NCBI RefSeq assembly: GCF_963921235.1
Contig: NC_086097.1
Span: 122,452,001-122,516,000, forward strand
DNA length: 64,000 bases
Reading direction: 5' to 3'
From: Mobula hypostoma
Taxonomy: Eukaryota
Part shown: piece after piece, positions 6,471 through 62,741 of the stretch
How the letters are laid out: the number at the start of each line of letters is the position of its first letter
How positions within the stretch are numbered: the stretch's first letter is position 1
Translations under genes and position numbers: made by a program
The notes under the pieces: model-generated
Told to the model about the DNA's origin: nothing
Databases searched by the model: none
The model's input: only the letters and a program-made list of their open reading frames with translations

Positions 6471-6474
6471 TTGG

Positions 6475-8299: not shown

Positions 8300-9060
8300 G
8301 AAATACAAGGCATTCTGCAAATGCTGGAAATCTACAGTAACACACAAAATAAGGAACAATACTGAATATTCTGTCCAAATAGCCTATAACCTGCATCAAT
8401 TTCTCTACCTTCTGATAATTTCTCCCACCTTCCCCTTTCTTTCTTGTTCCATTCACCATTCTCGCTCCCCTCTTACCTCTTCCCTTCTCCTCATCTGCCT
8501 ATCACATCCCTCTGGTGCCATGTCTCCTTTCCTTTCTTCCATGGTCCACTCTTCTCTCCTATCAAATTTCTTCTTCTTCATGCTTTTACCTTTTTCACCT
8601 ATCACCTGTCAGCTTCTCACTTCATCCTCCCCCACTCACCTGGTTTCACCAATAACCTTCAAGCTTGTACACATTCATCTTCCCCACAACCCCACTCCCA
8701 TTTTCTTATTCTGGATTCTTCCCCATTCTTTTCCAGTCCTGATAAAGAGTCTCAACCCAAAATGTCAATTCTTTCTTCCTTTCCATGGATGCTGCCTGAC
8801 CAGCTGAGTTCCTCTCTATGAATAGAAAGTCAGAGGGTATGACAATAGAGACCTCTACAGATTGTAGGGCTGGAAGGAAAAACCACAAAAAATCATTGAA
8901 AGTCACTCTAATCCTCATCTTTTTCTCCAGTCCTGCGAAATGGTCTCAGCCCGTAACTCTTTTCCACAGATGCTGCCTGGTCTGCCGAGTTCCTCCAGCA
9001 ACTTGTGTGTGTGTGTTGCTTGGATTTCCAGCATCTGCAGATTTTCTCTTGTTTGTGGTT
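8300..9060 (+). mobile_element. Penelope-derived terminal-repeat fragments (two) with degenerate hammerhead motifs
   Basis: Pyrimidine-rich tract, CAGTCCTGATAA..AAAATGTC at 8734-8771, GATGCTGCCTG..CTGAGTTCCTC; same family as 52165-52710. Confidence 0.7.
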
Positions 9061-9974
9061 AAAAAGAAGGCATTTGCAGAGACCAGAGCTACTGCAGCTT
9101 GGCAAATAACAAGAGCGCAAGCTGAATAAAGCATTAAGGGTGCTGGTCCATCTTCTGCACACAAAGACAATTTTGAAATCCAAAATCAGATCAGTGCTCT
9201 GTAAATCTCCTCTGTGTGCAAGCTATAATTGTGAAATGAGACTTCTAACTTCTCCACATCCCTGTCCCTAAACACTAATCTCACCTCTTTCTCGCCGACA
9301 ACCATATCCCTAAAACCTAACCAGACCCCAACTTCCCCCTCTCTCTCCTCAAAACCATCCCTGTGAACTTAAAAGAGAGCGAAGTCTGAGTATAAACATG
9401 ATGGAGACGACAACTCGGTGCCACCTTGAACAAAAAAAACAAAAAGACATCTCCAAAGAAATATTCCCATGCCGAGACCATTTTAAAAGATTGCACACTG
9501 GCACACAACAGCTTTTTCTGCTGAGACACAGTTGGAATACATTGCTGGGCCAAGTACAAGTGTGTGGCATTTGGTCATGCAGCACTTAACAAGAGATTGT
9601 TGGTGATGGGCACTGAAATGGAAATTGTTATATGCATTCACATCCTTCATCTTAATGAGCACATTTTTTAAAGACCATAGGAACGAGCGACATCAATTTA
9701 ATGGCTCACAACTTCCATATAAAAGACATCCTTGTGCACAATCCCTTGATGAAAAAAAACCTCAAAGTGCCTAATATTCATGACTCATGTCCTAAATCTA
9801 AGTCACATCAGGGTTAATGGCAAATTAAGTATTAAACAAAAATAAAAATCAATTGCAAATTGCAGCACCCTCACTGAGAAATGGTGGGCGAGGTGCATGG
9901 GCATTCGATTACCCTCATCACAGTGACAAGAGGAGCTGTCATTTATAACTTTGACAGGAGTTGTATTCTGCATT

Positions 9975-12993: not shown

Positions 12994-13384
12994 CTAGGAA
13001 GGGGTAAGTGCAGCCAGGTGAACTCCTCATTCACTTCAGGTCTGTACAACAGCACTACTTACACACCATTTTCTGCATCTTCTTCTTTAAAAGGCAGATA
13101 CACAAAGCATGTTTCAATTCTCTGCCATTTTTATATTTTACATGATAACTTCTTCAGTCTCAGTCTGTTATGGGAATAACAACAAATGTTTATTAATGTT
13201 TTTCACTTTGCACATAGAATTATAAAAAAAATCTATAAACAGGCTATAGAAATATTTACTATCCTTTTTATAAATACTTGCAACAGTTATCTCAACTTTG
13301 ATCCTCAAAATTCTAAACTTCCCCAGTCTACAGATTCATTGATATTGTTGACAATGTTGCAAGCTTCTTCCTTTAATCTGATAC

Positions 13385-13515
13385 TGTAACTGCTGAAGAG
13401 TTTTGGCCCAAAATGTCAACTGTACTCTTGTCCATAGATGCTGCCAGGCCTGCGGAGTTCATCCTGTATTTTGTGTGCATTGTTCGGATTTCCAGCATCT
13501 GCAGATTTTCTCTTG
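13385..13515 (+). mobile_element. Penelope-derived terminal repeat fragment
   Basis: CTGCTGAAGAG..GGCCCAAAATGTCAACTG followed by GATGCTGCC..GATTTCCAGCATCTGCAG. Confidence 0.7.
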
Positions 13516-13979
13516 TTAGGTATGGTTGGACCGTTTGTCCTACTGGGTTGTTGTGCCAACAGAATTGATCCAAGTTGGTTGTAACATTTATTAATTCTTG
13601 ATACATTGACCACTGCTTGTTTATATTTTATCTTTCAACACCTTTTCCCCTATTTACCACAGTCAACGTATGCTCCATACCTTGAGAACCCTGGCTTCAG
13701 AATCCAATGTTCAATTTTTAAGTAAACTTTAAGTATATTACAATCCCTTTTCCCTGAAGACTGTAATCCAAAAAAATTAATTAACCTTTCTGAATTGCAC
13801 AGTCCAAGAACCAAACATTTCCATATGATATTGAAGGCCATTCTGCTCTTCAAATATATGGAGCTGTCACAGCAAAGTGCCCCCCCCACCTCAATTCCCA
13901 CACTTATTTCTCTGTAATCTGCTCACATCAGCCTGTACAGCAGCATCACCCGTCCCCAGTCCTGAGATTCTCCAACACA

Positions 13980-14435
13980 CAACAGACTCTACAGATGCTG
14001 AAAATCCAGAGTAACACATACAAAGTGCTGGAGGAACTCAACAGATCAAGCAGCATCTATGGAGGGAATAAGCAGTCAATGTTTTGGACCAAGACCCCTC
14101 ATCAGGACTGGAAAGGGAGGGGGGAAGGAACCTGAATAAAGTGGAGACAGGATAAGAAGTACAAGTTGGCAGGTGAAAACAGGTGAGGGGAAGGTAGGTG
14201 GGTGAGGGGCGGGGGATGAAATGAGAAGGTGGGAGGTGATAGCTGGAAAAGGTAAAGGGCTGAAAAAGAAGGAATCTGACAGGAGACAATTGACCATGGG
14301 AGAAAGGCAAGGAGGAGGGACACCAGTGGGAGATGAGAGGCAGGTGAAGAGAATGGAACGGGTAAGGAGAGCCACAATGAGTAATGTAAGAACACAGAAG
14401 GTGAAGGGGGGAAAAATTACTCCAAGTTAGAGACC
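13980..14435 (-). mobile_element. Penelope-derived terminal repeat with hammerhead-like motif at 14073-14110
   Basis: Minus strand CAGTC CTGATGA GGGGTCTTGGTCC AAAA CATT GACTG. Confidence 0.75.
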
Positions 14436-14999: not shown

Positions 15000-15048
<49 letters not shown>

Positions 15049-15095: not shown

Positions 15096-15119
15096 TGTGA
15101 TATCAGGTGCAGAAGTATC

Positions 15120-16095: not shown

Positions 16096-16899
16096 AAAGT
16101 GACTCTGACAGGAATTGTCTGTACCTAGTACCCCTGATGTTGCTTGCAACTTTTCATTGTGCTGTGCCTCACCTCAATGTACTGGTGCACACTGCAGTAA
16201 ATTTAACTTGACTTGAAAGCATGTAAGCTCCACATAGACAGCACAAGAGGCAAAACTCCATTTGGATCAGTGGCATTGCAAGGTAGAACTGCCTGATATA
16301 CCAGCTTGTTCACTGGTTCATCAAGAAACCCTGTAGCAGGGTGACTGCCAATACACTCCTTGATAAATTGGAAACCTTTGCATCCATTTCATACTCAAAA
16401 TTAAACATTTAGTACATAATAATTCCCACACCATTTTTAGTCCTTGCTCACCTTCTTTGTATTTTTCCTTTGGTTTGTCAATATCAATTCAGAAACAAAT
16501 GTAACCAAACTTAAAACTGATTTTAGTTACTTCTGAGATCATGTTTCTATGGATTGAAATTGGTCTCAGGAGGTGGTTAATGGGAAACAAAATCATGCAG
16601 AGTTTAAAGCAGGCTACTGATGCACTGCTATGTGTTCTACAACTAATATAATACTATTAATCTCTCTCCATCTCTTACAATCATATAGGCCTTAGTTAGG
16701 AAACATGCTCATCGTTATTTCACAGGAACCTGAAGGATTAAGTGCGGATCGATTGATGGATCACCATGTAGGCCTGCTAGAAATCCAGCTCAAAAGATCA
16801 TAGAGCCAGCTGACAGCATCAACAGTGGCTTCAAATGGCATTGCAAGAACCGGTAAGAAAATTAGACCCGCTCATGGGCAACACTCTGAATGTATACTG

Positions 16900-17510
16900 T
16901 CTGAAGCAAAAAGTGACCTGTTGGAAGAAATCAGCAGGTCAAGCAGCAACCATAGAGGAAAGTGTGCAGTCGACATTTTGTGTGGAGACTAATCATCTGG
17001 ACTGAAAGAGTAAAGGGGAGATAGTAACATAAAGAGGTAAAGAGAGGTGAGGCAAATGAAAACTTAATTATCCAATGTCATACGATCCATTCCCCTTTGA
17101 TCTCTTTCTCTCTCCCTTATTTCCAGTTTCTTTCCCCTCCCCCACCTACTCCATCTGCCCATCACCCATACACTCCTCCCATTGGGTCCTCTCTCCCCAC
17201 TGCTCCCATCTGCCCACTGTATCTCCCTTATTTAATTCCTGTTATAAAATGAAATTATCTATAGCCCTTTGTTGCCTCCATATCTCATCTTCCAAGCCTC
17301 AGTCTCTCTCTTTGCCCAATGCCTTTCATAAGACTCCATCTGCCCGTGGAACCCCGCCTCACAGCATCCACTTATTGCTTGCCAGCTCTTGCCCCATATG
17401 AGCCTCACCCTTTATACCAGTGATCTTCCCTCTGCCATCAGTCCAGATGGAAGGATGCTTTCTGATCTGCTGAGTTCCTTCAGCAACTCATTTTTCAGCA
17501 CCTGCAATCT
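16900..17510. mobile_element. Penelope-derived repeat with inverted terminal-repeat arrangement
   Basis: Left arm on minus (hammerhead-like 16967-17004), right arm on plus (CAGTCCAGATG..CTGCTGAGTTCC). Confidence 0.65.
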
Positions 17511-21446: not shown

Positions 21447-22249
21447 TTCTTGAATAGATTTATTTTACTGTAAGGAATCAAGATCTGACAGGAAATGAAT
21501 GCAGCCCCCAGCCATGTCCTGACTCAGTATGCGCACATTACAGCTAGTCCAAATGATTGCACATTCAGTTTGAACAGACTGAGTGTCAGTCTTAAATGGC
21601 AGTACATTCTCAACAGACCGAATGGCCTGATTCTGCTCTAATGTCTTATGTTCTGTGTTCTCAATGGTAGAGTGAAAGTCCACGAATGACATACCCCTAC
21701 TCTCACTTTCTCTCATTCCTGTGGCAGAAACTCACTAAGCCACCCTTTAATTATAGCCTTAACTGAGTGCCATCAGATTTATGTATATTCTGAATAGAAA
21801 AAGAAATACAAGTAATAGCGAAAGAAGGGATTTTATCCAGAAACCAAATACCCATTTCGGCAATGGAACTTATTAAGAAGATTAATTCTTTGCCTTGTTT
21901 TTAATCACTGATAAACTGCCTCACATTCCGTGGCAGATACAAGCTCTGAACTGGCCAGACAATAGTTACAGCAGTCCTGTCAATATTGTTTCAGTCACAT
22001 AATTTGTGATTTGTTTGGAAAGTATGCTTTTATGGCAACCCACTTAAAAGATCTGAAAAGTCTGTTGCCATTTTAGATCCTATCACTCCAAGAAGCAGAC
22101 AGCTAATCACCCTTACACCACCTTTCACAGGGTGAAAGTCTGCAACTCTTCATACATTATCTTGATCGTAAATGTAGAAATCAAAGGAGGGTTTATAAGA
22201 CCGACTGTGCACATTACATTAGATCGAGTTAAAAGCAATTTCAATAACG

Positions 22250-22425
22250 AGATTCTACAGATGCTGGAAATCCAGACTAACACACACAAACTACTGGAAG
22301 AACTCAACAAGTTCATCAGGACTCTGAACTGTTTATTTTCCCCCACCTGATGAAGGGTCTCAGCCCCAAACCCTTTCCATCGATTCTGCCTGACCTGCTG
22401 AGTTCCTCCAGCATTTTGCACGTTA
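22250..22425. mobile_element. Short fold-back Penelope-derived repeat
   Basis: CTGGAAGAACTCAACAAG and CCTGCTGAGTTCCTCCAG inverted arms around CTGATGAAGGGTCTCAGCCC. Confidence 0.7.
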
Positions 22426-23083
22426 CTCTGCACATACAAAGTCCACAAACAGATTATCACCCTTAGAATAGTTTTAAACAATTTGAACTTGTATGAATAC
22501 CTAAATGGGATTTAAGTAACCGGTCAAGATAAACTGTACCAGTATCTAATCAGGGCAGTGAAATGGGAAAAAACATGTTACACTGGACTGATCAAAACCT
22601 AGTTTCCACGGCAAGGTTGTTCCTCAGCGGTGGTTAGGAAGAGCCATCTTCGTTCCCGTTTCACGCGCCTTTACCCAGATCTGCATCTCCTGTCCGTTCC
22701 CAGACAACGCTTCAAACCACTGCCCAAGGCAACGCAGGTTCGGCAGCTCGTACCCACACCCTCGCAACAATTGCTAGCCCATTGAAATCTCGCACACGCT
22801 ACAAGGCATTAGCCTGCACAGCGCAAACAGAGCCAAACGCAATAAACCGGATAAGTGAGCATGTGCCGGATTCTCTGGGCAACATTGGACATTTCACAAA
22901 AGCAGAACGGAAATCAGCTGGAACTCCAAACCCACGCCGTCAGAAAAATAAGATCAAGCGAACGAAATTTCCTGAGGAAACACACCACTCATCAACCTTC
23001 ACCAAGGTCCATTTCTAGCTGCACAAAATGTACAAACATTCTTGCCTCACAAACATATCACAAACTGAACAATTATGCATTGT

Positions 23084-23173
23084 AGCAACACACATCAAAG
23101 TTGCTGGTGAACGCAGCAGGCCAGGCAGCATCTGTAGGAAGAGGTGCAGTCGACGTTTCAGGCCGAGACCCTT
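23084..23173 (-). mobile_element. Penelope-derived repeat fragment with 3' half of hammerhead
   Basis: Minus strand AAGGGTCTCGGCCTGAAACGTCGACTG..GATGCTGCCTGGCCTGCTGCG. Confidence 0.75.
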
Positions 23174-23349
23174 ATGCATTATGCATTGTGTTACTGGAGG
23201 AGAAGCTCACATAGCCTTTGAATCTATTTTAAGGACTTGACATGGACGAAACAAGAAAACATGTTAAATGTTTTTAAAAGTTCTTTAAACGGCAACATCT
23301 GAACAATTGTTGCAACTTTGGATGTTGTCCTTGCCTTGAGTTCCTGAAG

Positions 23350-25251: not shown

Positions 25252-25595
25252 TTATCCTGAGGAAAGGTCTCAGCACGAAAAACCGACTGTTTATTTATTT
25301 CCGTAGATGCTGCCTGACCTGCTGAGCTCCTCCAGCATTTTGTGTGTGTTGCTTTAGACACACTACAGATATTATACAAAGAAACACACACGAGATGTTC
25401 GAGGAACTTAGCAGGTCAGAATCAGTATCAGGTTTATCATCACCGGCATATGTCGTGAAATTTGTTAACTTGGACTGTACCGATGAAGGGTCTCGGCTCG
25501 AAACGTCGACTGTTTATTCGTTTCCAACCTGCTGAGTTCCTCCGGCATTTCGTGTGTGTTTCTCTGGGTTTCCAGCATCTACACAATCTCTTGTG
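25252..25595. mobile_element. Cluster of Penelope-derived repeats (two plus, one minus) just upstream of DOK6
   Basis: Hammerhead-like motifs at 25252-25289 and 25475-25512; inverted arm at about 25380-25420. Confidence 0.75.
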
Positions 25596-31390: not shown

Positions 31391-34254
31391 ATCCTTCCTC
31401 AAGTATGGAGACCAGAACTGCACACAGTACTCCAGTTGTAGCCTCACCAGTACCCTGTATAGTTGCAGCATGACCTCCCTGCTCTTAAATTCAATCCCTC
31501 TAGCAATGAAGGCGAACATTCCGTTTGCCTTCTTAGTAACCTGTTCCACCTGCAAGCCAACGTTTTATGATTCATACACAAGCACTCCGAAGTCCCTTTG
31601 CACAACAGCATGCTGCAATTTTTCACCATTTAAATAATCATCTGCTCTTCTATTATTCCTTCCAAAGTGGATGATCTCGCATTTACCAGCATTGTATTCC
31701 ATCTGCTGGACCTTGGCCCACTAATTTAATCTATCTATATCCCTCTGCAGACTCTCCACATCCTTGGTACAATTTGCTTTTCCACTCAGTTTAGTGTTAT
31801 CAGCAATTTTTGCTACGCTGCACTCAGTCCCCTCTTCCAAGTCATCAATGTAAATGGTAAACAGCTGCGGGCCCAGCACCGACCCCTGCAGCACCCCACT
31901 CACCACAGACTGCCAAACGGAGAAACACCAATTTATACCAACCCTCTGCCTTCTATTGGTTAACCAATCCTCTATCCCTCTCAATACTCTTCCTCCGACT
32001 CCATGCATCCATATCTTATTTATAAGTCTCTTGTGCGGCACCTTATTGAACGCCTTCTGGGAATCCAAGTATTCAACATCCACCTGTTACCCTCTATCCA
32101 CTGCACTCATTATGTCCTCAAAGAACTCCAGTAAGTTTATCAAACTGGACCTGCCCTTTCTGAATCCATGCTGTGTCTGTCTAATATAACCCCTCCTTTC
32201 TAAATGTTTCACTATTTCTTCCTTAATGACAGCTTCAAGCATCTTCCCAACTACAGATGTTAGGCTAACTGGCCTATAGTTGCCCATCTTTTGCCTACAT
32301 CCTTTTTTAAAAAGTGGCATGATATTTACTGTCTTCCAACCCACCAGGACCTGCCCAGAGTCTACTGAGTTTTGGTAAATGATTACCAACACGTCTCCTA
32401 TAACCTCCGCCAATTCCCTCTGCACCCTGGGATGCATCCCATCAGCACCAGGGGACTTATCTACCTTCAGGCCCTCTAGTTTGCTCATCACTGTCTCTTT
32501 AGTGACAGTGATTTTATCTAAGTCCTCACCTCCCATTTCATCCGTAACATCATTCTTTGGCATATTGGACATGTCCTCCACTGTGAAGACCGACACAAAA
32601 TAGTTGTTCAATGCTTCAAACATTTCCTTATCACCCAATATCAATTTCCCTTTTTCGTCTTCCAAGGGACCTACATTGACTTTAGCCACCCTCTTCCACT
32701 TTATATATTTATAAAATTTTTTGCTATCTGTTTTTATATTTTGTGCTAATTTACTTTCATACTCTACCTTCCCTTTCCTTATTTCTTGCTTAGTTGTTCC
32801 TTGTTGCTTTTTAAAGTTTTCTCAATCCTTCAGCCTTCCACTATTCTTTGTGACTTCGTACAAATGAGCTTTTAATTTGATACTATCTTTTATTTCCTCA
32901 CTTATCCAAGGCTGGCTCTCCCCACACTTACTGTCCTTACTCTTGACTGGAATATACTTTTGTTGAGAACTGTGAAAAATCTCTTTGAAAGTATTCCACT
33001 GTTCCTCAACTGTCCTACCAAATAGCCTGTGCTCCCAATCTAAATTAGCCAACTCCTCCCTCATCCCGTTGTAGTCTCCCTTGTTCAAGCATTATACACT
33101 GGTTTTAGATCTAACTATTTCATCCTCCATCTGTATGCAAATTTCAATCATACTATGATCACTCTTTCCAAGAGAATCCCTGACTACAAGATCATTAATC
33201 TTTTGAATTCTATCCCCATCTAAATAATAGTCTGCCCATTCATTTCTTCCCCCAAAGTGCAGGACGATACTCTTTCCACCATTGTATTTCATTTGCCACT
33301 TCTTTACCCAGTCCCCAAAACTATCTAAGTCTCTCTGCAGGCTCTCTGTTCCCTCAATGCTACCCACTCCTCCATCTATCTTTGTATCGTCGGCAAATTT
33401 AGCCACAAATCCATTAATCCCATAGGCCATATCATTGACTTACATCGTAAAAAGCAGAGGCCTCAACACCGACCCCTATGGAACTCCACTGGTAACCAGC
33501 AGCCAGCCAGAATAGGATCCCTTTATTCCACCTCCCTGTTTTCTGCTGACCAGCCAATGTGCTACCCATGCTCGTAACTTCCGTGCAATTCCATGGGCTG
33601 TTATCTTGCTAAGCAGCCTCATGTGCGGCGCCTTTTCAAAGGCCTTCTGAAAAACATGTACAACACATCTAGTGCATCTCCTTTGATACGTTGATGTCAA
33701 GTAATTTCAATTTCTGGCACTCTCCACCTCTGATCTTCTATGTGGACTGGCTCATGGACCTCCTGCTTCTTCCTCCTGTAGTCAACAATCAACTCTTTGG
33801 CCTTGTTGACATTGAATGAGAAGTTGTTGTTGTGGCCCCTTTCAACCAGATTTTCAGCTCATTCCTATATGCCAATTCATCACCACCTTTAACTCAGCCA
33901 AGAGTAGTGTCATCAGCAAACTTAAATATGGCATTGGAGCTGTATGTAAGCAAGGATTCTTATCTCCCCTGTCAGGCAGAAGGTACAAAAGCCCACATGA
34001 TTCAAGGGCAACTTTCATCCCATTATTCTCAAACTCTTGAATAGACTTCTCATAAACTAAATGATGAACTCTTGATCTCACAGTCTACCTGGACCTTGTT
34101 TGTCTACCTGCACCGCACTTTCTCTGTAAGTGCGACACTATATACTGCATTCCGTTTTACTTCCACTACCTCAGTGTAATTATGCATAGCGTGACCTGTC
34201 AGGATGGCACACAAAGAAAATCTTTCCCTGTATCTTAATATACCATGTTACAAT

Positions 34255-34535: not shown

Positions 34536-35099
34536 TAATAGACCAGTTACTGAGATACGGTGAAAGTTCCCATATAGATGGTGGGGAGGGCTTCATCTGT
34601 GATGGACTGGGCTGAATCCGTCATTTTTCCATTGCTGGGCATTGATGTTTTCATACCAGGCTATGCTGTAACCCATTAGGTTACTCTCCATTGTACATCT
34701 ACAGAGATTTATCAAAGAAAAAAAAACAGCATTGCTGCCAACTGCTTCCAGATTTGACCTGCTACATAGTAAAACAACTTACAGTAACATACACAAATTG
34801 CTGGAGGAACTCAGTAGGTCAGGCAGCATCCATGGAAAGGAATGAACAGTCGATGATCCAGGCTGAGAGTTTACAGTGCCTATTAACATACCAAACTATG
34901 TGTCTTTGGGAAGCGGAAGTAAACTGGAACTCCGATGGAAACCCGTGTGATCACTGGGAGAACAGGCAAACTTCACACAGATCAGCACACAAAGTCAGGA
35001 TTCCCAGAGCTATGAGTTCACTGCCTTATCCACTGCCACCTCCAGATACAAACTTCTGCCAACTAGTTTCCAATAGCATTAAATTCACCAATTCACTTC

Positions 35100-42050: not shown

Positions 42051-43051
42051 TGAAAGACTGGACTGTGTTCGCAACTCTCTGCAATTTCTTCTGATCCTGA
42101 ATAGAGCAGTTGCTGTGCCAAGCTCAGATGTATCTGGATAGAGTGATGCATCAACAAAAGTTGGTGTGTGTCCTGCTAATTTTCCTTGGCCTTCTGAAGA
42201 AGGAGATTATGGAAGACGGGTAGTGGGGAAATAAGTTTGGAAGATGGAGGAAAGATGGTTACATCCTTATTTTGATACCTTAGACCTTCAATAATGCCAG
42301 GTTATTGAGATTAAAAAGAACATGGGGTGAAAGAGTTGTTGTTTTTTTCTCTATACTTCCATGGGTGCCACTCACAGAAAGACGTGAGGAGCCCTGAGGT
42401 CCAAGTGGTGGTATCTTGCTGGTATGCTTTCAGGAGAATTGGATGCATTCAATGTACAAATAAGTGGTTTATTGATCTCAGTTCTTGGAATATACGCAGT
42501 AGATTAAAAAGATCAGAATTTATCATTGAACATTTCATGACTTGGGAGCTTCTTAAATGTTGGCATTCAATTGAACTGGAAAGTACAGTAGTCAACCTGA
42601 GCACAACAAGCTCTCTCAAACCAATATAATTGTGCTACATAACTAGATCTAATGATGTTTATTCAGTTAATATTGCCAGTCATTGTTACAGAGTTAGTCC
42701 AAAACTATCATGCCAAATCTTTATCCCTTTATTTTAATAAAAATTATGATTGTAATTGCATTTGTACTGCATTCTGCAATACTGTATATGTGATTGTCAG
42801 AGGCAAGTGACAGCAATCATAAACACAAGAGTTTCTGCAAATGCTGGAAAACCTGAGCAACACACATGAGATTCAGGAGGAACTAAGCAGGTTAGACAAC
42901 ATCTGTAGAGGGGAATGAGTCACTAGCTCAGGACTAATGCAGACTCTTCAGCTCAAATATCAACTATTTATTCTGACCTGCTGCGATACAGCACAGAACA
43001 GGTCCTTCTGGCTGAAAGAGCTGTACCGCCCAGTAACCCACCCATTTAACA

Positions 43052-44961
43052 GTCGCTACACAGAATCCAGGCGTGAACTCCGGAAAGTCATTAAGGACGC
43101 CAAGAGGCAACATCAAGCCAAGTTGGAAGCCCAGGCTAACCAAAGGGATTCCAGTAGACTATGGCAGGGTCTAAATGAGATCACTGGGCACAAAGAAAAG
43201 GCTGGGAATATCAATAACTGTGGCGCTTCTCTTCCTGATGAACTTAACGTATTCTACGCAAGATTCGAACAGAAGAGGAGCGTCCCGCTCCCTCCGGATG
43301 AACCGGACCTGATGGCATCGAGATTCATCATCACCGAGGAGGACATTAGAAGGGCCTTCCTGAAGATAAATCCAAGGAAGGCTACGGGCCCAGATGGCGT
43401 CCCAGGACGGGGTCTCCGGGCCTGTGCAAGCGAGCCAGCTGGAGTGTTTGCTGACATCTTCAATGGCTCCTTGCTTCAGTCTAAGATCCCCTCATGTTTT
43501 AAGAAGACAACGATAATCCCAGTGCCGAAGAAGAGCAAGGTGGCATGCCTGAATGACTATCGACCTGTGGTTCTGACATCAGTTGCTATGAAGTGCTTTG
43601 AGCGATTGGTTATGACACACATCAACCACAGCCTACCAGTCAACCTCGACGCTTCGCAATCTGCCTACCGGAGCAACAGGTCAACGGCAGATGCCATCTC
43701 TCTGGCCCTACATTCCTCCTTAGAACAACTGGAGAATAAGGACACATACGTAAGGCTCCTTTTCATTGACTACAGCTCTGCCTTTAATACCATCATTCCA
43801 AATAAACTGATTCCTAAGCTCTGGAACCTGGGCCTTAGCACTCAGATCTGCAGCTGGATCTTCAACTTCCTCACAGACAGGACCCAGGCTGTAAAAATAG
43901 GGGACAAGCTCTCCTCTACAATCACTCTGAGCACCGGTGCCCCACAAGGCTGTGTACTCAGCCCCCTGCTGTACTCACTGTACACCCATGATTGTGTAGC
44001 CAAATTTCCATCAGACTCTATATATAAGTTCGCTGATGACACAACAATTGTAGGCCGTATCTCGGGTAATGATGTGTTTGAGTACAGAGAGGAAATTAAG
44101 AACCTGGTGGCATGGTGCGAAGACAATAACCTATCCCTCAACGTCAGCAGGACGAAGGAATTGGTTGTTGACTTCAGAAGGAGTAGCGGACCACATGACC
44201 CAATTTATAATGGTGGTGCACAAGTGGAACAGGTCAAAAGCTTTAAGTTCCTCGGGGTCAATATCACAAATGACCTAACTTGGTTCAACCAAGCAGAGTT
44301 CACTGTCAAAAAGGCCCACCAGTGCCTTTACTTCCTGAGAAAACTAAAGAAATTTGGCCTGTCCCCTAAAACCCTCACTAATTTTTATAGATGCACCATA
44401 GAAAGCATTCTTCTAGGGTGCATCACAACCTGGTATGGAAGTTGTCCTGTCCAAGACCGAAAGAAGCTGCAGAAGATTGTGAACACGGCGCAGCACATCA
44501 CACAAACCAATCTTCCGTCCTTGGACTCACTTTACACCGCACGCTGTCGGAACAGTGCTGCCAGGATAATCAAGGACACGACCCACCCAGACAACACACT
44601 TTTTGTCCCTCTTCCCTCCGGAAGAAGGCTCAGGAGCTTGAAGACTCAAACAGCCAGATTTGGGAACAGCTTCTTTCCAACTGTGATAAGACTGCTGAAC
44701 AGATCCTGACCCGGGTCTGGGCCGTACCCTCCAAATATCCGGACCTGCCTCTCGGTGTTTTTTGCGCTACTTTACTTTCCATGTTTCTATTTTCTATTAA
44801 TGATTTATAATTTAAATTTTAAATATTTAATAATTTTTACTATTTTTAATATTTAATATTTGTAATCCAGGGAGTGAGAAGCGCAAAATCAAATATCGCC
44901 TTGATGATTGTACGTTCTAGTATCAATTGTTTGGCGACAATAAGGTATGAAGTATAAAGTA
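43052..44961 (+). mobile_element. Young 5'-truncated Rex1/Babar LINE with an uninterrupted RT frame to 44709, inserted in a minus-strand SINE (about 42985-45170)
   Basis: KATGPDGVPG, LNDYRPVVLTS, LFIDYSSAFNT, GAPQGCVLSPLL, KFADDTT and LPSGRR motifs; (AAGTAT)-like tail; TAACA duplicated at the flanks. Confidence 0.95.
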
Positions 44962-45249: not shown

Positions 45250-48140
45250 ATAACCATATAAACACATAACAATTACAGTAAAGAAACAGGCCATCTCGGC
45301 CCTTCTAGTCCCTGCCGAATGCTACTGTCACCTAGTCCCACAGACCTGCACTCAGTCCATAACCCTCCATTCCCTTCCTGTCCATATAGCTATCTAGTTT
45401 TACTTTAAATGACAATATCGAATCTGCCTTGACCACTTCTGCTGGAAGCTCGTTCCACACAGCCTCCACACTGAGTAAAGAAGTTCCACCTCATGTTACC
45501 CCTAAACCTTTGCCCCCAACTCTCAACTCATGTCTTCTTGTTTGAATCTCCCCTACTCTCAATGGAAAAAGCCTATCCATGTCAAATCTATCTATCCCCC
45601 TCATAATTTTAAATACCTCTATTAAGGTCTCCCCTCAACCTTCAATGCTCCAAAGAATAAAGACCCAACTTGTTCAACCTTCCTCTGTAACTTAGGTGCT
45701 GAAATCCAGGTAACATTCTAGTAAATCTTCTCTGTACTCTCTCTATTTTGTTGACATCTTTCCTATAATTCAGTGACCAGAATTGTACACAGTACTCCAG
45801 ATTTGGCCTTACCAATGCCTTGTACAATTTTAACATTATATCCCAACTCCTATACTCAATGCTCTGATTTATAAAGGCCAGCATACCAAAAGCTTTCTTC
45901 ACCACCCTATCCACATGAGATTCCATGAATCGGGAGGAGGAGAAGATGGCGGCACAACGCAGCCTCTCCGGTGATGAATATCTGTAATCTGTCAAGTAGG
46001 AGGCCGTGCACAATTCTGATTTAATGAAGGCAGACATGAGAGCATGGAGGGACATCTGGTGAAACTTCTGAAATGCCTGCTTCGCTGCCACTGCCACTAT
46101 ATGATCCGAAATCTCCGGAGGGGAAGGCCTCGAATCCTTGGCTTTGCCTGTTGCTTAGCGGCTGGGGTCGGGGTCGAAGCGCTCGGCAGAGATGGTGCTC
46201 AGTGCTCGGTGTCGGAGGGCTGGTTGGAGGCTCGAAGATTTAGGACGGACTCAGAGTCGGACTGTGGTCGGGTGCTTCCAGGACGCTGCATCGGCAAGTT
46301 TGCGGTGCTGGAAGCTCGTGGTAGGGAGAGTTTCTTCCTTCTACTGTCTGCGTGAGATGTTGGGGCTATCAGGACTTTGAGACTTTTTTTTACCTTGCCC
46401 ATGGTCTGCTCTTATCAAATTACGATATTGCTTTGCACTGTTGTAACTATATGTTATAATTATGTGGTTTTTGTCAATTTTAGTCTTGGTCTGTCTTGTG
46501 TTTCTGTGATATCATACCGGAGGAACATTGTATCATTTTTTAATGTATGCATTTCTAAATGACAATAACGAGGGCTGAGTGTCCTCATAATCTAATCTAA
46601 CCTTCAGGGAGCTATGCACCATTATTTGTAGATCCCTCTGTTCTACTGCATTCTTCAATGCCCTACCATTTACCATGTATGTCCTATTTTGATTGGTTCT
46701 ACCAAAATGTAGCACCTCACATGTATTAGCATTAAACTCCATCTGCCATCTTTCAGCTCACTCTTCTAACTGGCCTAAATCTCTCTACAAGCTTTGAAAA
46801 CCTGCTTTATTATCCACAACTCCACCTATCTTAGTATCATCTGCATACTTACTCATCCAATTTACCACCCCATCATCCAGATCATTAATGTATATGACAA
46901 ACAACATTGGACCCAGTACAGATCCCTGAGTCACATCACTAGTCACCGGCCTCCAATCTGACAAACAGTTATCCACCACTACTCTCTGGCGTCTCCCATC
47001 CAGCCACTGCTGAATCCATTTTACCACTTCAATATTAATACCTAACGATTGAACCTTCCTAACTAACCTTCTGTGTGGAACCTTGTCAAAGGCCTTACTG
47101 AAGTCCATATAGACAACATCCAACGCTTTACCCTCATCAACTTTCCTAGTATCCTCTTCAAAAATTCAATAAGATTTGTCAAACATGACCTTCCACACAC
47201 AAATCCATGTTGACTGTTCCTAATCAGACCTTGTCTATTCAGATAATTATATATACCATCTCTAAGAATACTTTCCATCAATTTACCCACCACTGACGTC
47301 AAACTCACAGGCCAATAATTGCTAGGTTTACTCTTAGAATCCTTTTTAAACGATGGAACAACATGAGCAATACGCCAATCCTCCGGCACCATCCCCGTTT
47401 CTAATGACATTTGAAATATTTCTGTCAGAGCCCCTGCTGTTTCTACACTGATTTCCCTCAAGGTCCTAGGGAATATCCTATCGGGACCCAGAGACTTATC
47501 CACTTTTATATTCCTTAAAAGCGCCAGTACTTCCTCTTCTTTAATCATCATAATTTCCATAACTTACTTACCTATTTCCCTTACCTTACACAATTCAATA
47601 TCCTTCTCCTTAGTGAACACCGAAGAAAAGAAATTGTTCAAAATCTCCCCCATCTCTTTTGGTTCCACACATAGATGTCCACTCTGATTCTCTAAGGGAC
47701 CAATTTTATGCCTCACTATCCTTTTGCTATTAATATAACTGTAGAAACCCTTTGGATTTATTTTCACCTTACTTGCCAAAGCAACCTCGTATCTTCTTTT
47801 AGCTTTTCTAATTTCTTTAAGATTCTTTTTACGTTCTTTATATTCTTTGAGCACCTCATTTACTCCATGCTGACTATATTTATTGTAGATATCTCTCTCT
47901 TTCCAAACCAAGTTTCCAATATCCCTTGAAAACCATGGCTCTCTCAAACCCTTAACCTTTCCTTTCAACCTAACAGGAGCAGAAAGATCCAGTACCCTCA
48001 AAATTTCACCTTTAAATGACTTCCATTTCTCTATTACATCCTTCCTATAAAACAATTTTTCCCAATCCACTTGTTCTAAATCCTTTTGCATGTCCTGAAG
48101 GTTAGCTTTTCTCCAAGCAAAAATCTCAACCCTACATGGG
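45250..48140 (-). mobile_element. CR1 LINE, 5'-truncated, interrupted at 45926-46599
   Basis: Linker and RT motifs (YMDFSKAFDKVPH, SKYADDTK); same tail subfamily as 5876-6470. Confidence 0.93.
45926..46599 (+). mobile_element. Non-coding ~680-bp retroposon, copy 1
   Basis: GAGAAGATGGCGGC 5' end and (TAATC)n tail; second copy at 59638-60326. Confidence 0.85.
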
Positions 48141-48219
48141 CCATGACATCTGGCTGCTCCCCACTCCCACTGCCTCAACTCCATTCTCCATTCTCCATTC
48201 TCCTGCCTTTGACTCACTT

Positions 48220-52164: not shown

Positions 52165-52710
52165 CAGGTTTTGAGGCCACACACAGGTTGGGGGAGCAAC
52201 ACTTCATACTCCATCTGGGTAGCCTTCAACCTGACAGCATGAACATTGATTTACCATTCTACCCCCCCCCCACCCCCCACTCGTTTTGTATCCCATTCTG
52301 GGTCCACCTCTCCCTTTCTCTCATCCACACCTGCCCACCACCTCCCTCTGGTGCCCCTACTCCTTCCCTTTCTTCTATGGTCTACTGTCTTCTCTTGTCA
52401 TATTCCTTCTTCTTCAGCCCTTTACCTCTTTCACCTATCACCTCCTATCTTCTTACTTCATGCCCCCTCCCCCAACCACCGCATTCCCCCTCATCTGGTT
52501 TTACCAATCACTTGCCATTTGTGATCCATCCCTTCCTCCACCTCCTTACTCTGGCTTCTTCTCCTCTTTTCCAATCCTGACGAAAAGTCTCTGTCCAAAA
52601 ACGTTGACTGTTAAATTCTTTCTATAAATGCTACCTGACCTGCTGAGTTCCTCCAACATTTTGAGTGTATTCCCTACGATTTCCAGTATCTACAGAACTT
52701 CTTATGTTTG
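52165..52710 (+). mobile_element. Penelope-like element 3' end: GIY-YIG ORF terminus plus terminal repeat with hammerhead-like motif
   Basis: EATHRLGEQHFILHLGSLQPDSMNID fits the PLE endonuclease C-terminal RE..WI..L.TL.P.G.N pattern; CAATC CTGACGA..AAAAACGTT GACTG at 52572-52610. Confidence 0.8.
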
Positions 52711-53500: not shown

Positions 53501-53613
53501 GAGAGAATATGGAGACATAATAGATTGCAGATACTGGTGTATAGAGAGGAAACAAACAAACTGCTGGAGGAACTCAGTAGGTGACACAATGTCTATGGAA
53601 GCAGAAGTATAGT

Positions 53614-55192
53614 TAGAAACGTAGAAAAACTGCAGCACAATACAGGCCCTTTGGCCCACAAAGTTGTGCCGAACATGTCCCTACCTTAGAAATTGCCTAA
53701 GATTACCCATAGCTCTCTATTTTCTTAGCTCCATGTACCTATCCAAAAGTCTCCTAAAAGACCCTATCATATTCGCCTCCACCACTGTTGCCTGCAGCCC
53801 ATTCCACGCACTCACCACTATCTGCGTAAAAAAAACTTACCCCTGACATCTCCTCTGTACCTACTCCCCAGCACCTTAAACAGCTGCCCTCTTGTGGCAG
53901 CCATTTCAACCCTGGGAGTAAGCCTCTGACTTTCCACACGATCAATGCCTCTCATCATCTTATCCACCTCTGTCAGGTCATCTCTCATCCTCTGTTGCTC
54001 CAAGGAGAAAAGGCCGAGTTCACTCAACCTGTTTTCATAAGGCATGCTCCCCAATCCAGGCAATATCCTTGTAAATCTCCTCTGCACCCTTTCTATGGTT
54101 TCCACATCCTTCCTGTAGTGAGGCGACCAGAACTGAACACAGTACTCCAAGTGGGGTCTGACCAGGGTCCTATATAGCTGCAACATTACCTCTTGGCTCC
54201 TAAATTCAATACCGTGATTGATGAAGACCAATACACCGTACGCCTTCTTAACCACATAGTCAACCTGCGCAGCAGCCTTGAGCGTCTTATGGACTCGGAC
54301 ACCAAGATCCCTCTGATCCTTCACGCTGCCAACAGTCTTACCATTAATACTATATTCTGCCATCATATTTGACCTACCAAAATGAACCACCTCACACTTA
54401 GCTGGTTTGAACTTCATCTGCCACTTCTCAGCCCAGTTTTGCTATCAATGTCGTGCTGTAATCTCTGACAGACCTCCACATTATCAACAACACTCACAAC
54501 CTTTGTGTCATCAGCAAACTTATTAACCCATCCCTCCACTTCCTCATGCAGTTCATTTATAAAAATCACGAAGAGTAAGGGTCCCAGAACAGATCCCTGA
54601 ATCACACCACTGGTGACTGACCTCCATGCAGAATATGACCCGTCTACAACCACTCTTTGCCTTCTATGGGCAAGCCAGTACTGGATCCACAAAGCAATGT
54701 CCCCTTGGATCCCATGCCTCCTTACTTTCTCAATAAGCCTTGCATGGGGTACCTTATCAAATGCCTTGCTGAAATCCATATGCACTACATCTGCTGCTCT
54801 TCCTTTATCAACGTGTTTAGTCACATCCTCAAAAAATACAACCAGGCTTGTAAGGCATGACCTGCCCTTGACAAAGCCATGCTGACTATTCCTAGTCATA
54901 TTATACCTCTCCACGTGTTCATAAATCCTGCCTCTCAGGATTTTCTCCATCAACTTACCAACCACTGAAGTAAGACTCACTGGCTTATAATTTCCTGAGC
55001 TATCTCTACTCCCTTTCTTGAATAAGGGAACAACATTCGCAACCCTCCAATCCTCTGGAACTTCTCCCGTCCCCATTAATGATGCAAAGATCATTGCCAG
55101 AGGCTCAGCAATCTCCTCCCTCACCTCCCACAGTAGCCTAGGGTGCACCTCATCCAGTCCCAGCAACTTATCCAACCTGATGCTTTCCAAAA
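53614..55192 (-). mobile_element. CR1 LINE, 5'-truncated (same subfamily as 26820-29158)
   Basis: Full RT motif series; near-collinear with the 26.8-kb copy. Confidence 0.95.
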
Positions 55193-55319
55193 TCTCAGTT
55201 GTTGTTTTAAGTTGTGACTGAATTGGGACTGAGAGCCCAGTGGGGTAACAGCCAGTATAAAGAGGGGAAAGGGACAGTTAAAACCTAATTTTGGTTTATA
55301 TATCCTTCCTAAGGATTTG

Positions 55320-57409: not shown

Positions 57410-60400
57410 TGTTGTGTACTTAGTATTTCAATAATAATTGAGTAATATTGTAAATATACTGTTTGATTAAGCATTCTTTGTTGTTTATATAATTCATTCT
57501 TAGTTATATGTAAAAGTACTGTACATGAATGGCATAGGTTTCATTATGCCATCACGTAATTTGTGCACACCTCTTCACTAAGAGTAAAAATGAAGCACTG
57601 ACACATTATTCCCAGCACTGTTTTTTTTCTTTCAATAAGTTTTATGTCTTAGAGTCACTAAACATAATAATGACAGCAAGTAAGGTTTAAAAAGAACTGG
57701 AGATAATTACCTACCCGGTGAAGAGAACACGCTTCTTCCTCAAAATGTAAAAAATACTTTTGAGTTTTTAAAAAAGCACAGTGAGACATTAAAATTCTTA
57801 AAAAGGGCATCATGTGGTTTCTTCAGAAAAGGAAAGATGATCAAATAAAAGAAAAGACAGAATATGGATGAAATTAACGGGTTCATAAACAGTGAATATC
57901 GAGTGATAATGAGAAATTTTAAAAAGCAGATATATCTGACTAAATTAGAGAGATAAACAAATTTGATTTTATAAGAGATAACTGGATATTGTATACTGAG
58001 TGAGTTGAGCAATAGTTTGAAGCAAATGAAATAGCCAGTGAAAAATGAGCACCAAATTTGCTGAGTTCATTGGGTGGAAGAGTACACAGTTTGCTTAGAA
58101 TTTTGACTGCTCCAACTAAACCAGCCAAAATGAATTTTGTTGGTATTATGAAAGTATTGCTGGAACATTTTGAACCAAAACCATCGTTGGTTGCAGAATG
58201 CTTTAGCTTTCATAAGTGGAATCAAAAGGAAGGAGAGTACATTTCAGCTTTATGTGGCTGATTTGAATAGATTGTTTGAGCATTGTAAGTTTGGCAGTGG
58301 GTTTAATGATGCACTGAGAGATCATTTAGTTTTGGAATCTTACAAGACAGCATTCAAAAATAGCTCCTAACTGAACCACAATTAACATTCAAAAGAGCAG
58401 CTGAAGGTGCTGTGTTAATGGAAATAGCAATTAGAGACGCAATTGAGTTGCAGTCAGGAAGGCAAGTGAGAATGCACAAAATTGTAGCATTTAAATGGAG
58501 GCCAGACTGGTTGAACAAAGAGGGTTATAGTTGTGGCAGGGGCTCACGTGCACCAGAACAATGCAGCTTTAAAGGCAAAACTTTCAGAAAATGCAACAAA
58601 GTAGTACAAACACAAAGAGCATGCTGGGTAAAAATAAATGGACAGCACAAGGAAGAGGAAGAGCTAAAAAGTCAAATTCCAGTTTCAAAAAAGGCACTAA
58701 TCTGCAACGTGATCATGAGTGACACAGGACTGAGTAGCCTTGAAATTGACAATGTGAAAAGTAACAATAGACAAGCAATATGGCTTACACCAGAAGTGAA
58801 TGGCAAATTAATTAAATTGGAATTGGAGACTGGCTTGGCTGTTTCAATTATTCCACAAAATGAGTTTGAATGGCATTTCAAAGATACTAAACTGAAGCCT
58901 GCAGATATCCAACTAAGAACTTATACCAGAGAAAAAGATAACTCCTGTGGTAAAGGCATTCATAACAGTGAAATACAATAACCAATAAACCACATTGGGC
59001 TTGATTGTGATAAACACAGGAGTGCCAGCATTGTGGGGTTGTGAGTAGCTGAGTCAACTACAAGTGACTGGAGACCCATCCACAATTTGCATGCCACATG
59101 CCATGTAATAGAGACAATTGAAAGTGAACTAAGAAAGGTACTGGATGATGCCACAGCAGTGTAACAGAACGGCACTGAAGATGTCACACTAAAGTTTCAC
59201 AAAGCCCATCTAGTTCCTTATACCATCTGTGAGAAAGTAGCTAGTGAGATAGATGGCATGGAGGTTGAAGAAATTATTTCTAAGGTTGAGTAGAGCCCAT
59301 GGGCAATGCCGGTGATCCCAGTAGCCAAGAAGAATGAATGGGTCTGTCATGTCAGGATCTGTGGTGATTGTAAGGTCACCATCAAATTCGTACTGAATGT
59401 AGATCAACATCTTTGGGCCAGGATAGAGAATATCTTTCCAAATCTTTCTGGAAGCAAACACTTCAGCAAAGTGGATTTAGCTGAGGTCTGCCTACAGATG
59501 GAGATAGAAGAAGAGTCCAAAATTTTTCTGTCCATAAGCACTCACAAAAGGCTTGATTGCAATCTAGCAGAATGCGATGGACCAGGTGCCACAAGGCTGC
59601 CCAGGCACTCAGTGTTACCTGGATGACATCATTGTTAGATTAGATTAGATTAGATTATGAGGACACTCAAGTCCTTGTTTATTGTCATTTAGAAATGCAT
59701 GCGTTAAAAATGATACAATGTTCCTCAAGAATGATATCACAAGAAACACAGGACAAACCAAGACTAAAACTGACAAAACCTCATAATTATAGCATATAGT
59801 TACAACAGTGCAAAGCAATACAGTAATTTGATAAAGAGCAGACCATGGGCACGGTAAAAAAGTCTCAAAGTCCCGATAGACTCATCATCTCACGCAGACG
59901 GTAGACCGGAGAAACTCTCCCTGCCATGAACCTCCAAGCACCACAAACTTGCCGATGCAGCACCATTGGAAGCACCCAACTGCAGCGGACTCTGAGTCCA
60001 TCGGAAAACTTCGAGCCTCCAACCAGCCCTTTGACACCGAGCACCGAGCATCATCCTTTGCCGAGCACTTCGACCCTGCCCTGGCCGGCAAGCAACAAAC
60101 AAAGCTGAGGACTCCGGGCCTTTCCCTCCGGAGATTTCAGACCACACAGTAGCAGCAGCAGCAGTGAAGCAGGCATTGCAGAAGTTTCACCAGATGTTCC
60201 TCCGTGCTCTCACGTCCGTCTCCATCAAATCAGGATTGTGCACGGCACCCTACTTGACAAATAACAGACATCACCACTGGAGTGGCCGCTGCGAGTTGTG
60301 TCGCGCCGCCATCTTCTTCTCTCCTCTTGTTACCGGTAAGGATGACAACGAATTTATACAAAATCTCAAGACAGTGTTCAATAGATTAGAAGATTATGGG

Positions 60401-62741
60401 CTCAGAGCACAATGCAACAAATATGAATTCTTTAAGCTGAGGATCACTTACTGTGATCACATGTGTGCTGAGAAAATTCAAGCAGTGGTGGATGCCCCAA
60501 GGCCAAAGGACGTGTCACTGTTGTGGTCCTTTTCAGGATTTGTCAATTACTGTAACAGGTTCCTGCCAAACTTGGCTACTGTGCTCCACCACCTGAACTC
60601 ATTAGTACAGGTTGGGAAGAAATGGCAATGGACAAAGCAGTGTGAGGTGGCTTTCCAAAAGGTAAGGAAATAGTGACATCAGAAACTGTACTCACACATT
60701 ATGATCCACATCATCCAGTGAAGCTTACCTGTGATGCCTCACCTTATGGTGTAGGCACAGTCATGTCACAATTTACAGTGATTGAAGTGAGTGCTCCATA
60801 GCCTTTGCCCTTACTGCTGCAGACAAAAAATACTTTCAGATTATCAGAGAGACCTTGAGTCTAGTTTGGGACATAAATCATTTCAACCAGTACTTGTATG
60901 GGAGGGAGTTTACCTTCATTACGGATCATCAACCACTAGTGTTCATTTTCAATCCTCAACACGAATGCAGAGTTGGGCTCTGTTTCTTGCAGAACACAGT
61001 TACAAAATCAAATTCCATAGGATGTCTAATTATAGAAATGCTGATTGGCTGTCCCATTTACCATTGGATAAGGAAATAACTGAAAAATTTACAAAAGAGG
61101 ACACTCCTCTTGACATATTCTCCCCAATGCAAATCAAAAATCTCCCTAATACAGCTGAGATGATCCAAAGGGAAATCAGAAAATGCATCACTGTCTCAGG
61201 TCTACATGGCCATCCAAAATAGCTGGAATGAGCAGCAAAAACTCTAGTCCCCTCATTTTTACCAGTGCTAGGATGATCTTGCACTTGACGGGTTGCCTTA
61301 CGTGGGGATTGAGAGTTGTTGCATCATCATAGTTGAGGGCTAAAGTGTTAGAGGAGCTACAAACAGGTCATCTGGGTGAGGCATAATGAAAGCATTGGCT
61401 TGAAGCTTTGTCTCGTGGCCTGGGATAATCGGCAGATCAGGCAGCTCACTATGCACTGTTCAAGATGCCAACTTGTGAAGAGGATGCCAGAAGCAGCTTC
61501 ACTCCATCCCTGGGAATGGCCTGCATTTCCCTGGCTTATGGATTTTGCCAGACTATTCATAGGCACAAATTTCTTGGTAGTAGTAGATGCAGCTACGAAG
61601 TGGCCAGAAGTGCTCCCAATAGCTTCCACTAAAGCCTCATGCACTGTTGATGTGTTGAGAGGCCTCTTCTCAAGGATTGCTGTTCCAGAACACTTAGTTA
61701 GTAACAATGGACCACAGTTTGTTGCAGAAAAGATTGAATCATTCCTGAAAATGAATGGAATAAGACCTATTATATCTGCACCATACCACGCAGCTAGAAA
61801 TGGCTTGGCAGAAAGGTTTGTTCAGAGTTTAAAAACACCTGCTAGCAATGTCAGCAGAACACACTACACTAACACTGAATCAAAATCTCACCAAATTCCT
61901 CCTTGCATATCGCAAAGCGACACACTCCACAACCAACAACTCACCAGCTATGCTGTTCCTGTGTTGTCCTTTGCAGTCGTGCTTGGATCTCCTCAAACCC
62001 AATCTCAGAGGGAGAATGCAGGACAAACAGCTGAGACAAATTGAGGGCTCTTCAAACAAGGAGGTTTGATGTTTCACTCCTCGACAAACAGTCATGCCGA
62101 GGGACTATAGAGGTGATCAAAAGAAGGTACTTGGAAAGGTTAAGGACAGACCTGGACCACTCTCCTGTACAGTAGATATTGTGTCTGAAGTCATCTGGAG
62201 ATGACACATTGATTGGTTGAGGAGAGCAGAGCCAATTGTTAGAGAAGAAATCTGTCTAGAACTTTCAGAACCACTTCTTTCAGTCCCAGAGTCAACTCCT
62301 ACAAACATTACAGAGGAGGCCCCACAACCTGAAATTGTTTCACGTTCACAATTCTCATTTGCAGAGCAGAGTGACCCCTCCCCCACCCTTCTCAGGAAAG
62401 ATGATATCCTGCAAGGGTAAGAAATACTCCACAGTGATTAAATCTTTAAGCCTGAATGGGAAATTTAAATTTACTACACTGTGGATGACTCTCTAGTTGT
62501 TTTATATGGTATGCTGTGTGCATAGCTGAGATGCATACTGTATTGAGTTGGAGTTTATAGCTAACCATAAACTTGTTGTTTACATAATTCATTATAGGTT
62601 GTATGTTAAAGTACATGAATGGCATACATCAGTTTGCCACCACATCATATGTGTGTACTCCACTAAAGTACAGACAAGTTACTCTCGACTCTGTGTTTTT
62701 GTTTCAAGTAGTTTTATGTTTTGGAGTTACAAATCGTAACA
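57410..62741 (+). mobile_element. Full-length but decayed Ty3/Gypsy (Mag-like) LTR retrotransposon
   Basis: 5' LTR about 57410-57667 and partial 3' LTR about 62570-62741; gag knuckles (CGRGSRAPEQC), protease (LETGLAVS), RT (VRICGD, YLDDIIV), RNase H (CDASPYGVG) and integrase (SNNGPQF, NGLAERFVQSLK) in Gypsy order; many stops and frameshifts. Confidence 0.92.
59638..60326 (-). mobile_element. Non-coding ~690-bp retroposon, copy 2, inserted just after the Gypsy YLDD motif
   Basis: Homologous to 45926-46599; 6-bp TSD TTGTTA. Confidence 0.88.

Follow-up and report, generated by a model that had tools for sequence, protein, structure and literature searches.

A high-copy Penelope-like retrotransposon in Mobula hypostoma, likely of the Neptune clade, with a predicted minimal hammerhead ribozyme in its flanking repeat

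A 64-kb stretch of contig NC_086097.1 of Mobula hypostoma, hereafter the window, contains at 52.2 kb the remains of a repeat whose motif of about 38 nt resembles a hammerhead ribozyme. The locus raises the question of what kind of element spread this motif, and whether the motif is of use to it. The initial annotation had listed ten places with the motif, tied it to Penelope-like elements (PLEs) through the end of a GIY-YIG reading frame, and proposed a very high-copy PLE or retrozyme-like family. We consider it highly probable that the stretch at 52.2 kb is a dead, 5′-truncated copy of a Penelope-like retrotransposon that reached a high copy number and likely belongs to the Neptune clade, and that the repeated motif is the minimal type I hammerhead of its flanking repeat, for which weak cleavage, confined to the dimer, is predicted.

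To collect the copies in the window, a sequence profile was built from seven of the ten listed places. It identified 16 family copies at E ≤ 0.1 (Table 1), the best match in the reversed window being only E = 2.9, and all ten places were found to contain a copy of the repeat. The repeat unit exceeds 38 nt, as about 100–135 nt run on downstream from the motif start. Eight copies can be aligned across the whole motif and none of them passes a test of core and stems, in line with the earlier remark that the window holds no intact hammerhead; the remaining copies are truncated or carry deletions. The Rfam search that had been suggested as a check was negative, with no hammerhead family match in the window or on an intact copy from elsewhere. 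The Rfam matches returned for the window were dismissed as simple repeats or chance; among them, a GT/AC microsatellite at 15000-15128 yields spurious microRNA matches, all under the gathering score.

The stretch 52172-52710 is an old, dead, 5′-truncated PLE copy carrying a broken minimal type I hammerhead. Its GIY-YIG terminus proved real: at 52173-52253, 20 of 27 residues are identical to residues 1012-1038 of the full-length ORF of locus L205, although Pfam alone does not detect this fragment. In the hammerhead, the first box is intact, stem II is broken, G12 is replaced by A and C17 by U, and one base is extra. No target-site duplication is recognizable around this copy, the longest word common to both flanks being 4 nt. 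The young copy at 23083-23173 is flanked by a 12-bp target-site duplication.

Other retroelements share the window. LINE reverse transcriptase fragments lie at 26822-28560, 32087-32821, 47564-48217 and 53614-55277, which we take from their translations to be CR1-like; 26822-28401 and 53614-55196 are 88% identical. A second LINE type, presumably Rex1/L2-like, is found at 42919-44709 (+) and 1242-1763 (+) and includes a reverse transcriptase frame free of stops over 596 aa, which points to a fairly young copy. Broken LTR-retrotransposon-like frames for protease, reverse transcriptase/RNase H and integrase, assumed to be Gypsy-like, occupy 58364-62044 (+), and 45937-46603 matches 60321-59642 at 84%.

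Table 1. Copies and parts of the Penelope-like family in the 64-kb window.
Position	Strand	Feature	Basis
8456..8814	+	older-subfamily copy, 3′ UTR and decayed hammerhead at 8734-8771	profile search, alignment
8923..9063	+	short decayed copy, tail present, deletion in 3′ half of motif	
13381..13521	+	short decayed copy, tail present	
13973..14433	-	older-subfamily copy, 3′ UTR, decayed hammerhead (14073-14110) and tail	
16890..17011	-	copy with strong decay	profile search
17453..17489	+	downstream-segment fragment only	profile E=3.8e-5
22249..22313	-	inverted partner fragment of the 22347 copy	
22346..22425	+	short copy, 5′ end at first box, 3′ half of motif deleted	
23083..23173	-	young-subfamily short copy, U at 11.1, 5′ end 6 nt inside motif	95% identity to L205
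25254..25356	+	short decayed copy, 5′ end at upstream edge of motif	
25377..25419	-	inverted fragment adjoining the 25475 copy	
25475..25595	+	short near-consensus copy, U4 and 11.2 altered	
34781..34868	-	short copy, 5′ end inside stem II; absent from the initial list	
42841..42952	-	copy with strong decay; absent from the initial list	
52172..52253	+	PLE GIY-YIG domain, last 27 codons; 5′ end of truncated focal copy	85% identity over 81 nt to full-length ORF of locus L205
52254..52571	+	3′ UTR, pyrimidine-rich / upstream pseudo-LTR part, older subfamily	71-73% identity to window copies 8456-8814 and 14346-13993
52572..52610	+	decayed minimal type I hammerhead of focal copy	sequence; fails intactness test
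52611..52710	+	pseudo-LTR downstream segment and 30-40-nt tail	74% identity to L205 pLTR and tail
53550..53603	-	downstream-segment fragment only	profile E=1.7e-6

Extending young copies in the upstream direction led first to a GIY-YIG frame, then to a reverse transcriptase and finally to the start of the element. The parent element was then sought elsewhere in the genome with an N-terminal DNA query, and 20 loci around its matches were fetched out of 40 scored. The full-length PLE unit is 3.5 kb long and has one open 1,042-aa ORF for a reverse transcriptase (RT), a Cys linker and a GIY-YIG domain, which bears out the proposed PLE origin. ORFs of more than 1,000 aa were present in five of the 20 loci (1,042 aa in four, 1,015 aa in one), and same-strand hammerhead pairs about 3.5 kb apart in 13. 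The four intact PLE ORFs are 96.6–98.9% identical to each other. The upstream hammerhead starts 88 nt 5′ of the first ATG, and the downstream one lies about 300 nt 3′ of the stop codon. Pfam matches on the full-length ORF (RVT_1, E = 4e-5; GIY-YIG, E = 0.004) are both below the curated cut-offs, and a search of solved structures with the full ORF gave no match at E ≤ 0.1. The motifs DKG and YIDD, a CX4CxxC linker and CCHH (CxxC...H...H) in the nuclease were read by eye from the translations.

Beyond the ORF combining RT and GIY-YIG, the family displays the partial tandems or pseudo-LTRs, inverted 5′ partners, optional 30–40-bp tail and variable 5′ truncation of endonuclease-positive PLEs. In the available text of Craig et al. 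(2021, PMC8557442), a CX2-5CxxC linker together with a CCHH GIY-YIG domain is the pattern of Neptune and Nematis, and the translations contain this linker ahead of GIY-YIG as well as the CCHH residues. Neptune elements as described there resemble the present one in the order of RT, linker and C-terminal CCHH GIY-YIG, and in their partial tandems, inverted 5′-truncated partner and 30–40-bp tail. The element thus likely belongs to the Neptune clade, an assignment that follows the linker motif, which Nematis has as well, rather than an RT phylogeny.

Several loci deserve separate mention. L196 (G000:C2:157227500-157237400) contains three hammerheads spaced by 3,516 and 3,514 bp, a double full-length tandem whose second unit has an open 1,042-aa ORF. 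The flanks of L174 and L175, 266 kb apart on C99, are identical, which suggests a segmental duplication or an assembly duplicate. Downstream of the hammerhead, L205:1355-1450 comprises the first ATG as well as both 3′-end sites, has changed little between subfamilies and folds as a long stem-loop (-23 kcal/mol, no shuffle control), a candidate protein-binding and initiation signal.

To estimate the size of the family, 40 arbitrary 10-kb stretches were searched with a profile of the downstream segment, which gave 61 matches, and none in the reversed control. Extrapolated to the genome, this corresponds to about 530,000 end pieces (bootstrap 400,000–680,000), a very high copy number as first proposed. 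Among the 61 random copies, 39 align over the whole motif and 16 pass the intactness test, five of these 16 having G-C at 10.1–11.1; the 16 in 400 kb extrapolate to about 140,000 sequence-intact hammerhead copies. The recommended count of intact copies gave 45,182 exact intact 34-mers genome-wide as the sum of four variants: 5,457 with C at N7 and C at 11.1, 1,034 with U and C, 36,060 with C and U, and 2,631 with U at both (6,491 with C11.1 and 38,691 with U11.1). The core of the by-eye consensus in the initial annotation exists exactly in the genome, its 34-base centre being the variant with 1,034 copies (none when read backwards); the commonest young form departs from this consensus at N7 (C), in outer stem I (U-G) and at 11.1 (U). 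Exact downstream 33-mers number 59,464 for the young subfamily and 7,135 for the older one. L133:3749 and L168:6169 (minus strand) represent a third, older subfamily, which has its own stem II loop and a linker of reduced length. The expectation that annotation would miss the family held for the hammerhead, which Rfam misses, and failed for the repeat, as PLEs are reported to be expanded in a shark genome in the available part of that report (10.1101/443036).

Next, the anatomy of the motif was compared between subfamilies. Among 91 young and 55 old copies, the majority letters spell out the core boxes CUGANGA, GAAA and UH together with stems I and II, and the palindromic, loopless stem III ACGU is the majority in both subfamilies, as the first description of a minimal type I hammerhead had it. 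N7 is the one core position that lacks a common majority letter: young copies have C there, old ones U or A. As G8 is kept in 51 of 55 old copies, this difference is not CpG decay. The changes from the old to the young master affect N7, which is unpaired, outer stem I (C-G to U-G) and 10.1–11.1 (G-C to G-U), with core and pairing retained. The proposed test of stem covariation was negative: the two subfamilies differ by no two-sided change, and by two one-sided changes that keep the pair. By its sequence, the motif would be a minimal type I hammerhead of a PLE flanking repeat, of a known kind, with cleavage after C17 as a prediction.

Dead copies decay neutrally, and only changes between master elements are therefore informative. 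For this reason the suggested comparison of core and flanks says little about dead copies, but it turned out favorably between the subfamilies. With 14 old and 14 young long copies, the subfamilies have different majority letters in 4 of 38 motif columns, two of which reflect CpG decay, versus 24 of 40 upstream columns (P = 5e-6), a contrast that is soft because the upstream stretch is low-complexity and gap-rich, and versus 9 of 16 linker columns (P = 8e-4). In the next 40 columns 11 differ, part of that stretch being fixed by the anchor patterns used. The conservation of the motif could alternatively reflect a promoter or a protein-binding site. In contigs of four other organisms, core-box positions are absent among the differences listed. 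Nor is a junction at the cut site among the entries listed for these contigs, which are presumed to derive from RNA and do not display transcript ends, so that this result weighs neither way on expression. Position 11.1 is C in 86, 70, 54 and 28% of the depth in these contigs, and stem I position 1.4 is A in 74, 44, 53 and 10%, with no partner change among the listed rows, which indicates that outer stem I is not always kept. In a single-strand fold, the hammerhead reaches -7 to -9 kcal/mol versus a minimum of -11 for a shifted non-hammerhead register; the unconstrained fold of two strands favors an extended duplex (-30 kcal/mol) over the double hammerhead.

The motif closely matches the minimal hammerheads of PLEs described by Cervera and De la Pena (2014, PMC4209133; available text). 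Common to both are type I topology, a stem I of 4–5 bp, the location in the pseudo-LTR, one extra base between A9 and 10.1, a palindromic 15.2–16.2 without loop 3, flanking repeats with a single motif each at a spacing of about 3 kb, and a majority of single, truncated copies. Such motifs were reported there in Xena, Poseidon and Neptune elements of fishes, and no shark, skate or chimaera names were found in the available text of the paper and its supplement. The present family differs in its exact copy number, in the tens of thousands versus 4,000–9,000 in coelacanth and frog, and in its dominant young form, which has G-U at 10.1–11.1 within a 4-bp stem II.

This G·U wobble characterizes the youngest and largest subfamily, in which U at 11.1 replaces the C of the G10.1–C11.1 pair. 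C11.1 and G12 form a CpG whose decay should yield C-to-T about as often as G-to-A; 36,060 exact copies carry U11.1, versus 5,457 with C and 1,247 in the G-to-A control, and the U is thus a master change. U11.1 is the younger form: decay at the N7 CpG amounts to 7.3% in U11.1 (2,631 per 36,060) versus 18.9% in C11.1 copies (1,034 per 5,457), and nearest-neighbor identity is 97.4% (22 copies) versus 95.4% (11 copies; P = 5e-4). Mismatches inside the motif did not separate U from C copies by age (P = 0.19), nor was CpG decay significant in the 89 sampled copies (P = 0.15). Every hammerhead in the five intact-ORF loci carries U11.1. With U11.1, the stability of stem II drops from -3.9 to -2.3 kcal/mol. 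Pairing stem II in another register, with an A-U closing pair, was rejected as less stable than the G-U register. Loss of the G10.1–C11.1 pair would be expected to slow hammerhead cleavage, and a G·U at this position would likely weaken self-cutting. The G10.1–C11.1 pair is highly conserved in PLE hammerheads according to the same 2014 study (PMC4209133), and no rate measurement for a G10.1–U11.1 hammerhead was found in the literature, including the available texts of PMC544870, PMC2837043 and PMC9901934.

These observations open the possibility, to which we give some weight while thinking it unlikely, that the motif of the youngest subfamily no longer cuts usefully and survives in another role, as promoter, start site or protein-binding structure, with the element moving without self-cleavage. 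It would account for the excess of U11.1 over both the C form and the CpG control, for the exclusive presence of U11.1 at the intact-ORF loci, for the weaker stem II in a younger subfamily and for the departure from a pair that is highly conserved in other PLEs. It also agrees with the anole element, which inserted in vitro without cleavage and gave no reads ending at the cut site (available text of PMC11167929). Against it, G-U still pairs, the core boxes and the palindrome remain the majority in the 91 young copies, and U11.1 may be a simple CpG mutation recently fixed in a master copy.

To understand how the copies arose, their ends were mapped. For 5′ ends, 163 copies were sampled from the window, from 60 loci picked on downstream sequence only and from 40 arbitrary stretches; one was unalignable, and the remaining 162 include one window copy twice. 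Of the 69 young copies, 11 begin at -15 to -1 relative to the motif versus 1.5 expected (P = 5e-7), seven of these at inverted junctions where microhomology blurs the boundary, and 19 start at -15 to +12 versus 3.1 expected. Only two start within 3 nt of the cut site versus 0.95 expected (P = 0.25). All 162 copies include 39 that start at -15 to -1 and four near the cut site, with the proviso that 5′ boundaries of the old class are less reliable since upstream subfamily divergence can mimic them. Short copies thus start at the upstream edge of the motif and none at the cut site, which suggests that the insertion template was likely uncut RNA. The 3′ ends of 100 young copies, counted from the motif start, fall mainly into two groups, 53 at +85 to +99 and 38 at +120 to +139 (peaks near +95 and +132). 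The difference between the groups is the PLE tail, which has been traced to two internal starts of reverse transcription (available text of PMC11167929). Target-site duplications of at least 8 nt flank 8 of 43 short young copies versus 20 of 1,806 mismatched pairs. AC-rich fillers of 4–25 nt lie between the target-site duplication and the element 5′ end at the 5′ junctions of L095, L144 and L081 and at 23173-23180 of the window; some resemble the reverse complement of the 3′-end region and may be very short inverted products of the other strand.

The ends fit truncated and inverted PLE insertions from uncut RNA, and not retrozymes. That a separate non-autonomous retrozyme family, with short hammerhead units copied through circular RNA, makes most of the copies is very unlikely in our assessment, and for the bulk of copies this reading is largely refuted. 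Many copies are indeed just 100–140 bp long, and a 96-bp head-to-tail hammerhead pair occurs within a six-copy cluster at L168:3080-3300, the sole retrozyme-like tandem among the 61 random copies. Tandem retrozymes derived from PLE repeats are moreover reported from one chondrichthyan genome in the available text of a 2026 preprint (Li et al., 10.64898/2026.07.22.740005). However, same-strand neighbors within 500 bp were found for only 2 of the 61 random copies (16 within 4 kb) and inverted ones for 18, and the 5′ ends are ragged, with 34 of the 69 young copies extending more than 150 nt into the PLE 3′ UTR. None of the 162 copies starts exactly at the cut site, whereas unit-length cleaved or circular templates would give such starts. 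Short copies match the autonomous element at 95%, and the focal copy contains ORF sequence. The animal non-LTR retrozymes of the preprint (10.64898/2026.07.22.740005) share a type I hammerhead derived from a PLE repeat and many monomers, but are defined by tandem arrays with at least two complete motifs, as opposed to a single pair among 61 copies here. Short head-to-tail units, each with a complete hammerhead and no ORF, are thus not the organization of the sampled copies. The retrozyme-like part of the original proposal gives way to insertions, 5′-truncated or inverted, derived from an autonomous PLE of which intact copies persist.

Finally, a chance likeness to a hammerhead inside an abundant repeat, for which the lack of an Rfam match even on an intact copy and of two-sided covariation could be adduced, is extremely improbable given the joint occurrence of the complete core, stems I and II, the additional base 3′ of A9 and the palindrome, N7 as the sole core position with different master letters, and a position in the PLE repeat where such motifs have been published (PMC4209133, available text).

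For the preferred reading, a Penelope-like element spreading from mostly uncut RNA, we propose the following course of events. The PLE would be transcribed from tandem copies. Its protein would nick DNA and start reverse transcription internally, at one site about 95 nt and another about 132 nt 3′ of the motif start, which would produce the optional tail. Reverse transcription would usually end prematurely, which would account for end pieces in the hundreds of thousands, many of them beside an inverted partner. Within a tandem transcript, two motifs could pair their ACGU palindromes as stem III, probably helped by the PLE protein, and insertion would mostly use uncut RNA. The motif would be able to act only in tandem transcripts of full-length copies, the single window copies being presumably inert, and the pile-up of 5′ ends at the foot of stem I may reflect either initiation of the transcript or template switching there. 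In the available text of PMC4209133, PLE hammerheads show no cleavage as monomers and weak cleavage as dimers. For PAc, the Poseidon element of the green anole (Frangieh et al. 2024, PMC11167929; available text), cutting needs the protein of the element and is dispensable for insertion in vitro. PAc shares with the present element two internal RT starts that define the tail and a hammerhead just upstream, and the use of cut RNA as template is likewise not indicated. It differs in that its first ATG lies inside stem II, whereas here it follows the motif start by 88 nt, and in that it belongs to the Poseidon clade.

The Neptune-type layout has been known since 2014, and the additions made here are modest, namely a G-U pair in the copies of the latest burst and the finding that no sampled copy begins at the cut site. 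In the literature searched for hammerheads or Penelope elements in sharks, rays and cartilaginous fishes, the hammerhead of this family was not described, subscription papers, Repbase and Dfam being outside the scope of the search.

Together, our results point to a family whose ribozyme motif may be one of the most abundant in vertebrate genomes and of which near-identical, intact full-length copies exist. A further-reaching reading, which we hold to be tentative and somewhat less likely again than a loss of useful cutting, is that the most successful burst of retrotransposition in the recent history of this genome, with about 39,000 exact copies and every intact-ORF locus observed, came from a master without the G10.1–C11.1 pair, its short copies starting at the upstream motif edge and none at the cut site. 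If the U form is slow or dead, attenuation of its ribozyme would have benefited the element, the motif being mainly a start-site or protein-binding module. The C and U variants at 11.1 bear on whether hammerhead cleavage in PLEs matters for transposition, and with a slow or dead U form, a comparison of the older C with the younger U variant would lend itself to studying the role of PLE hammerheads.
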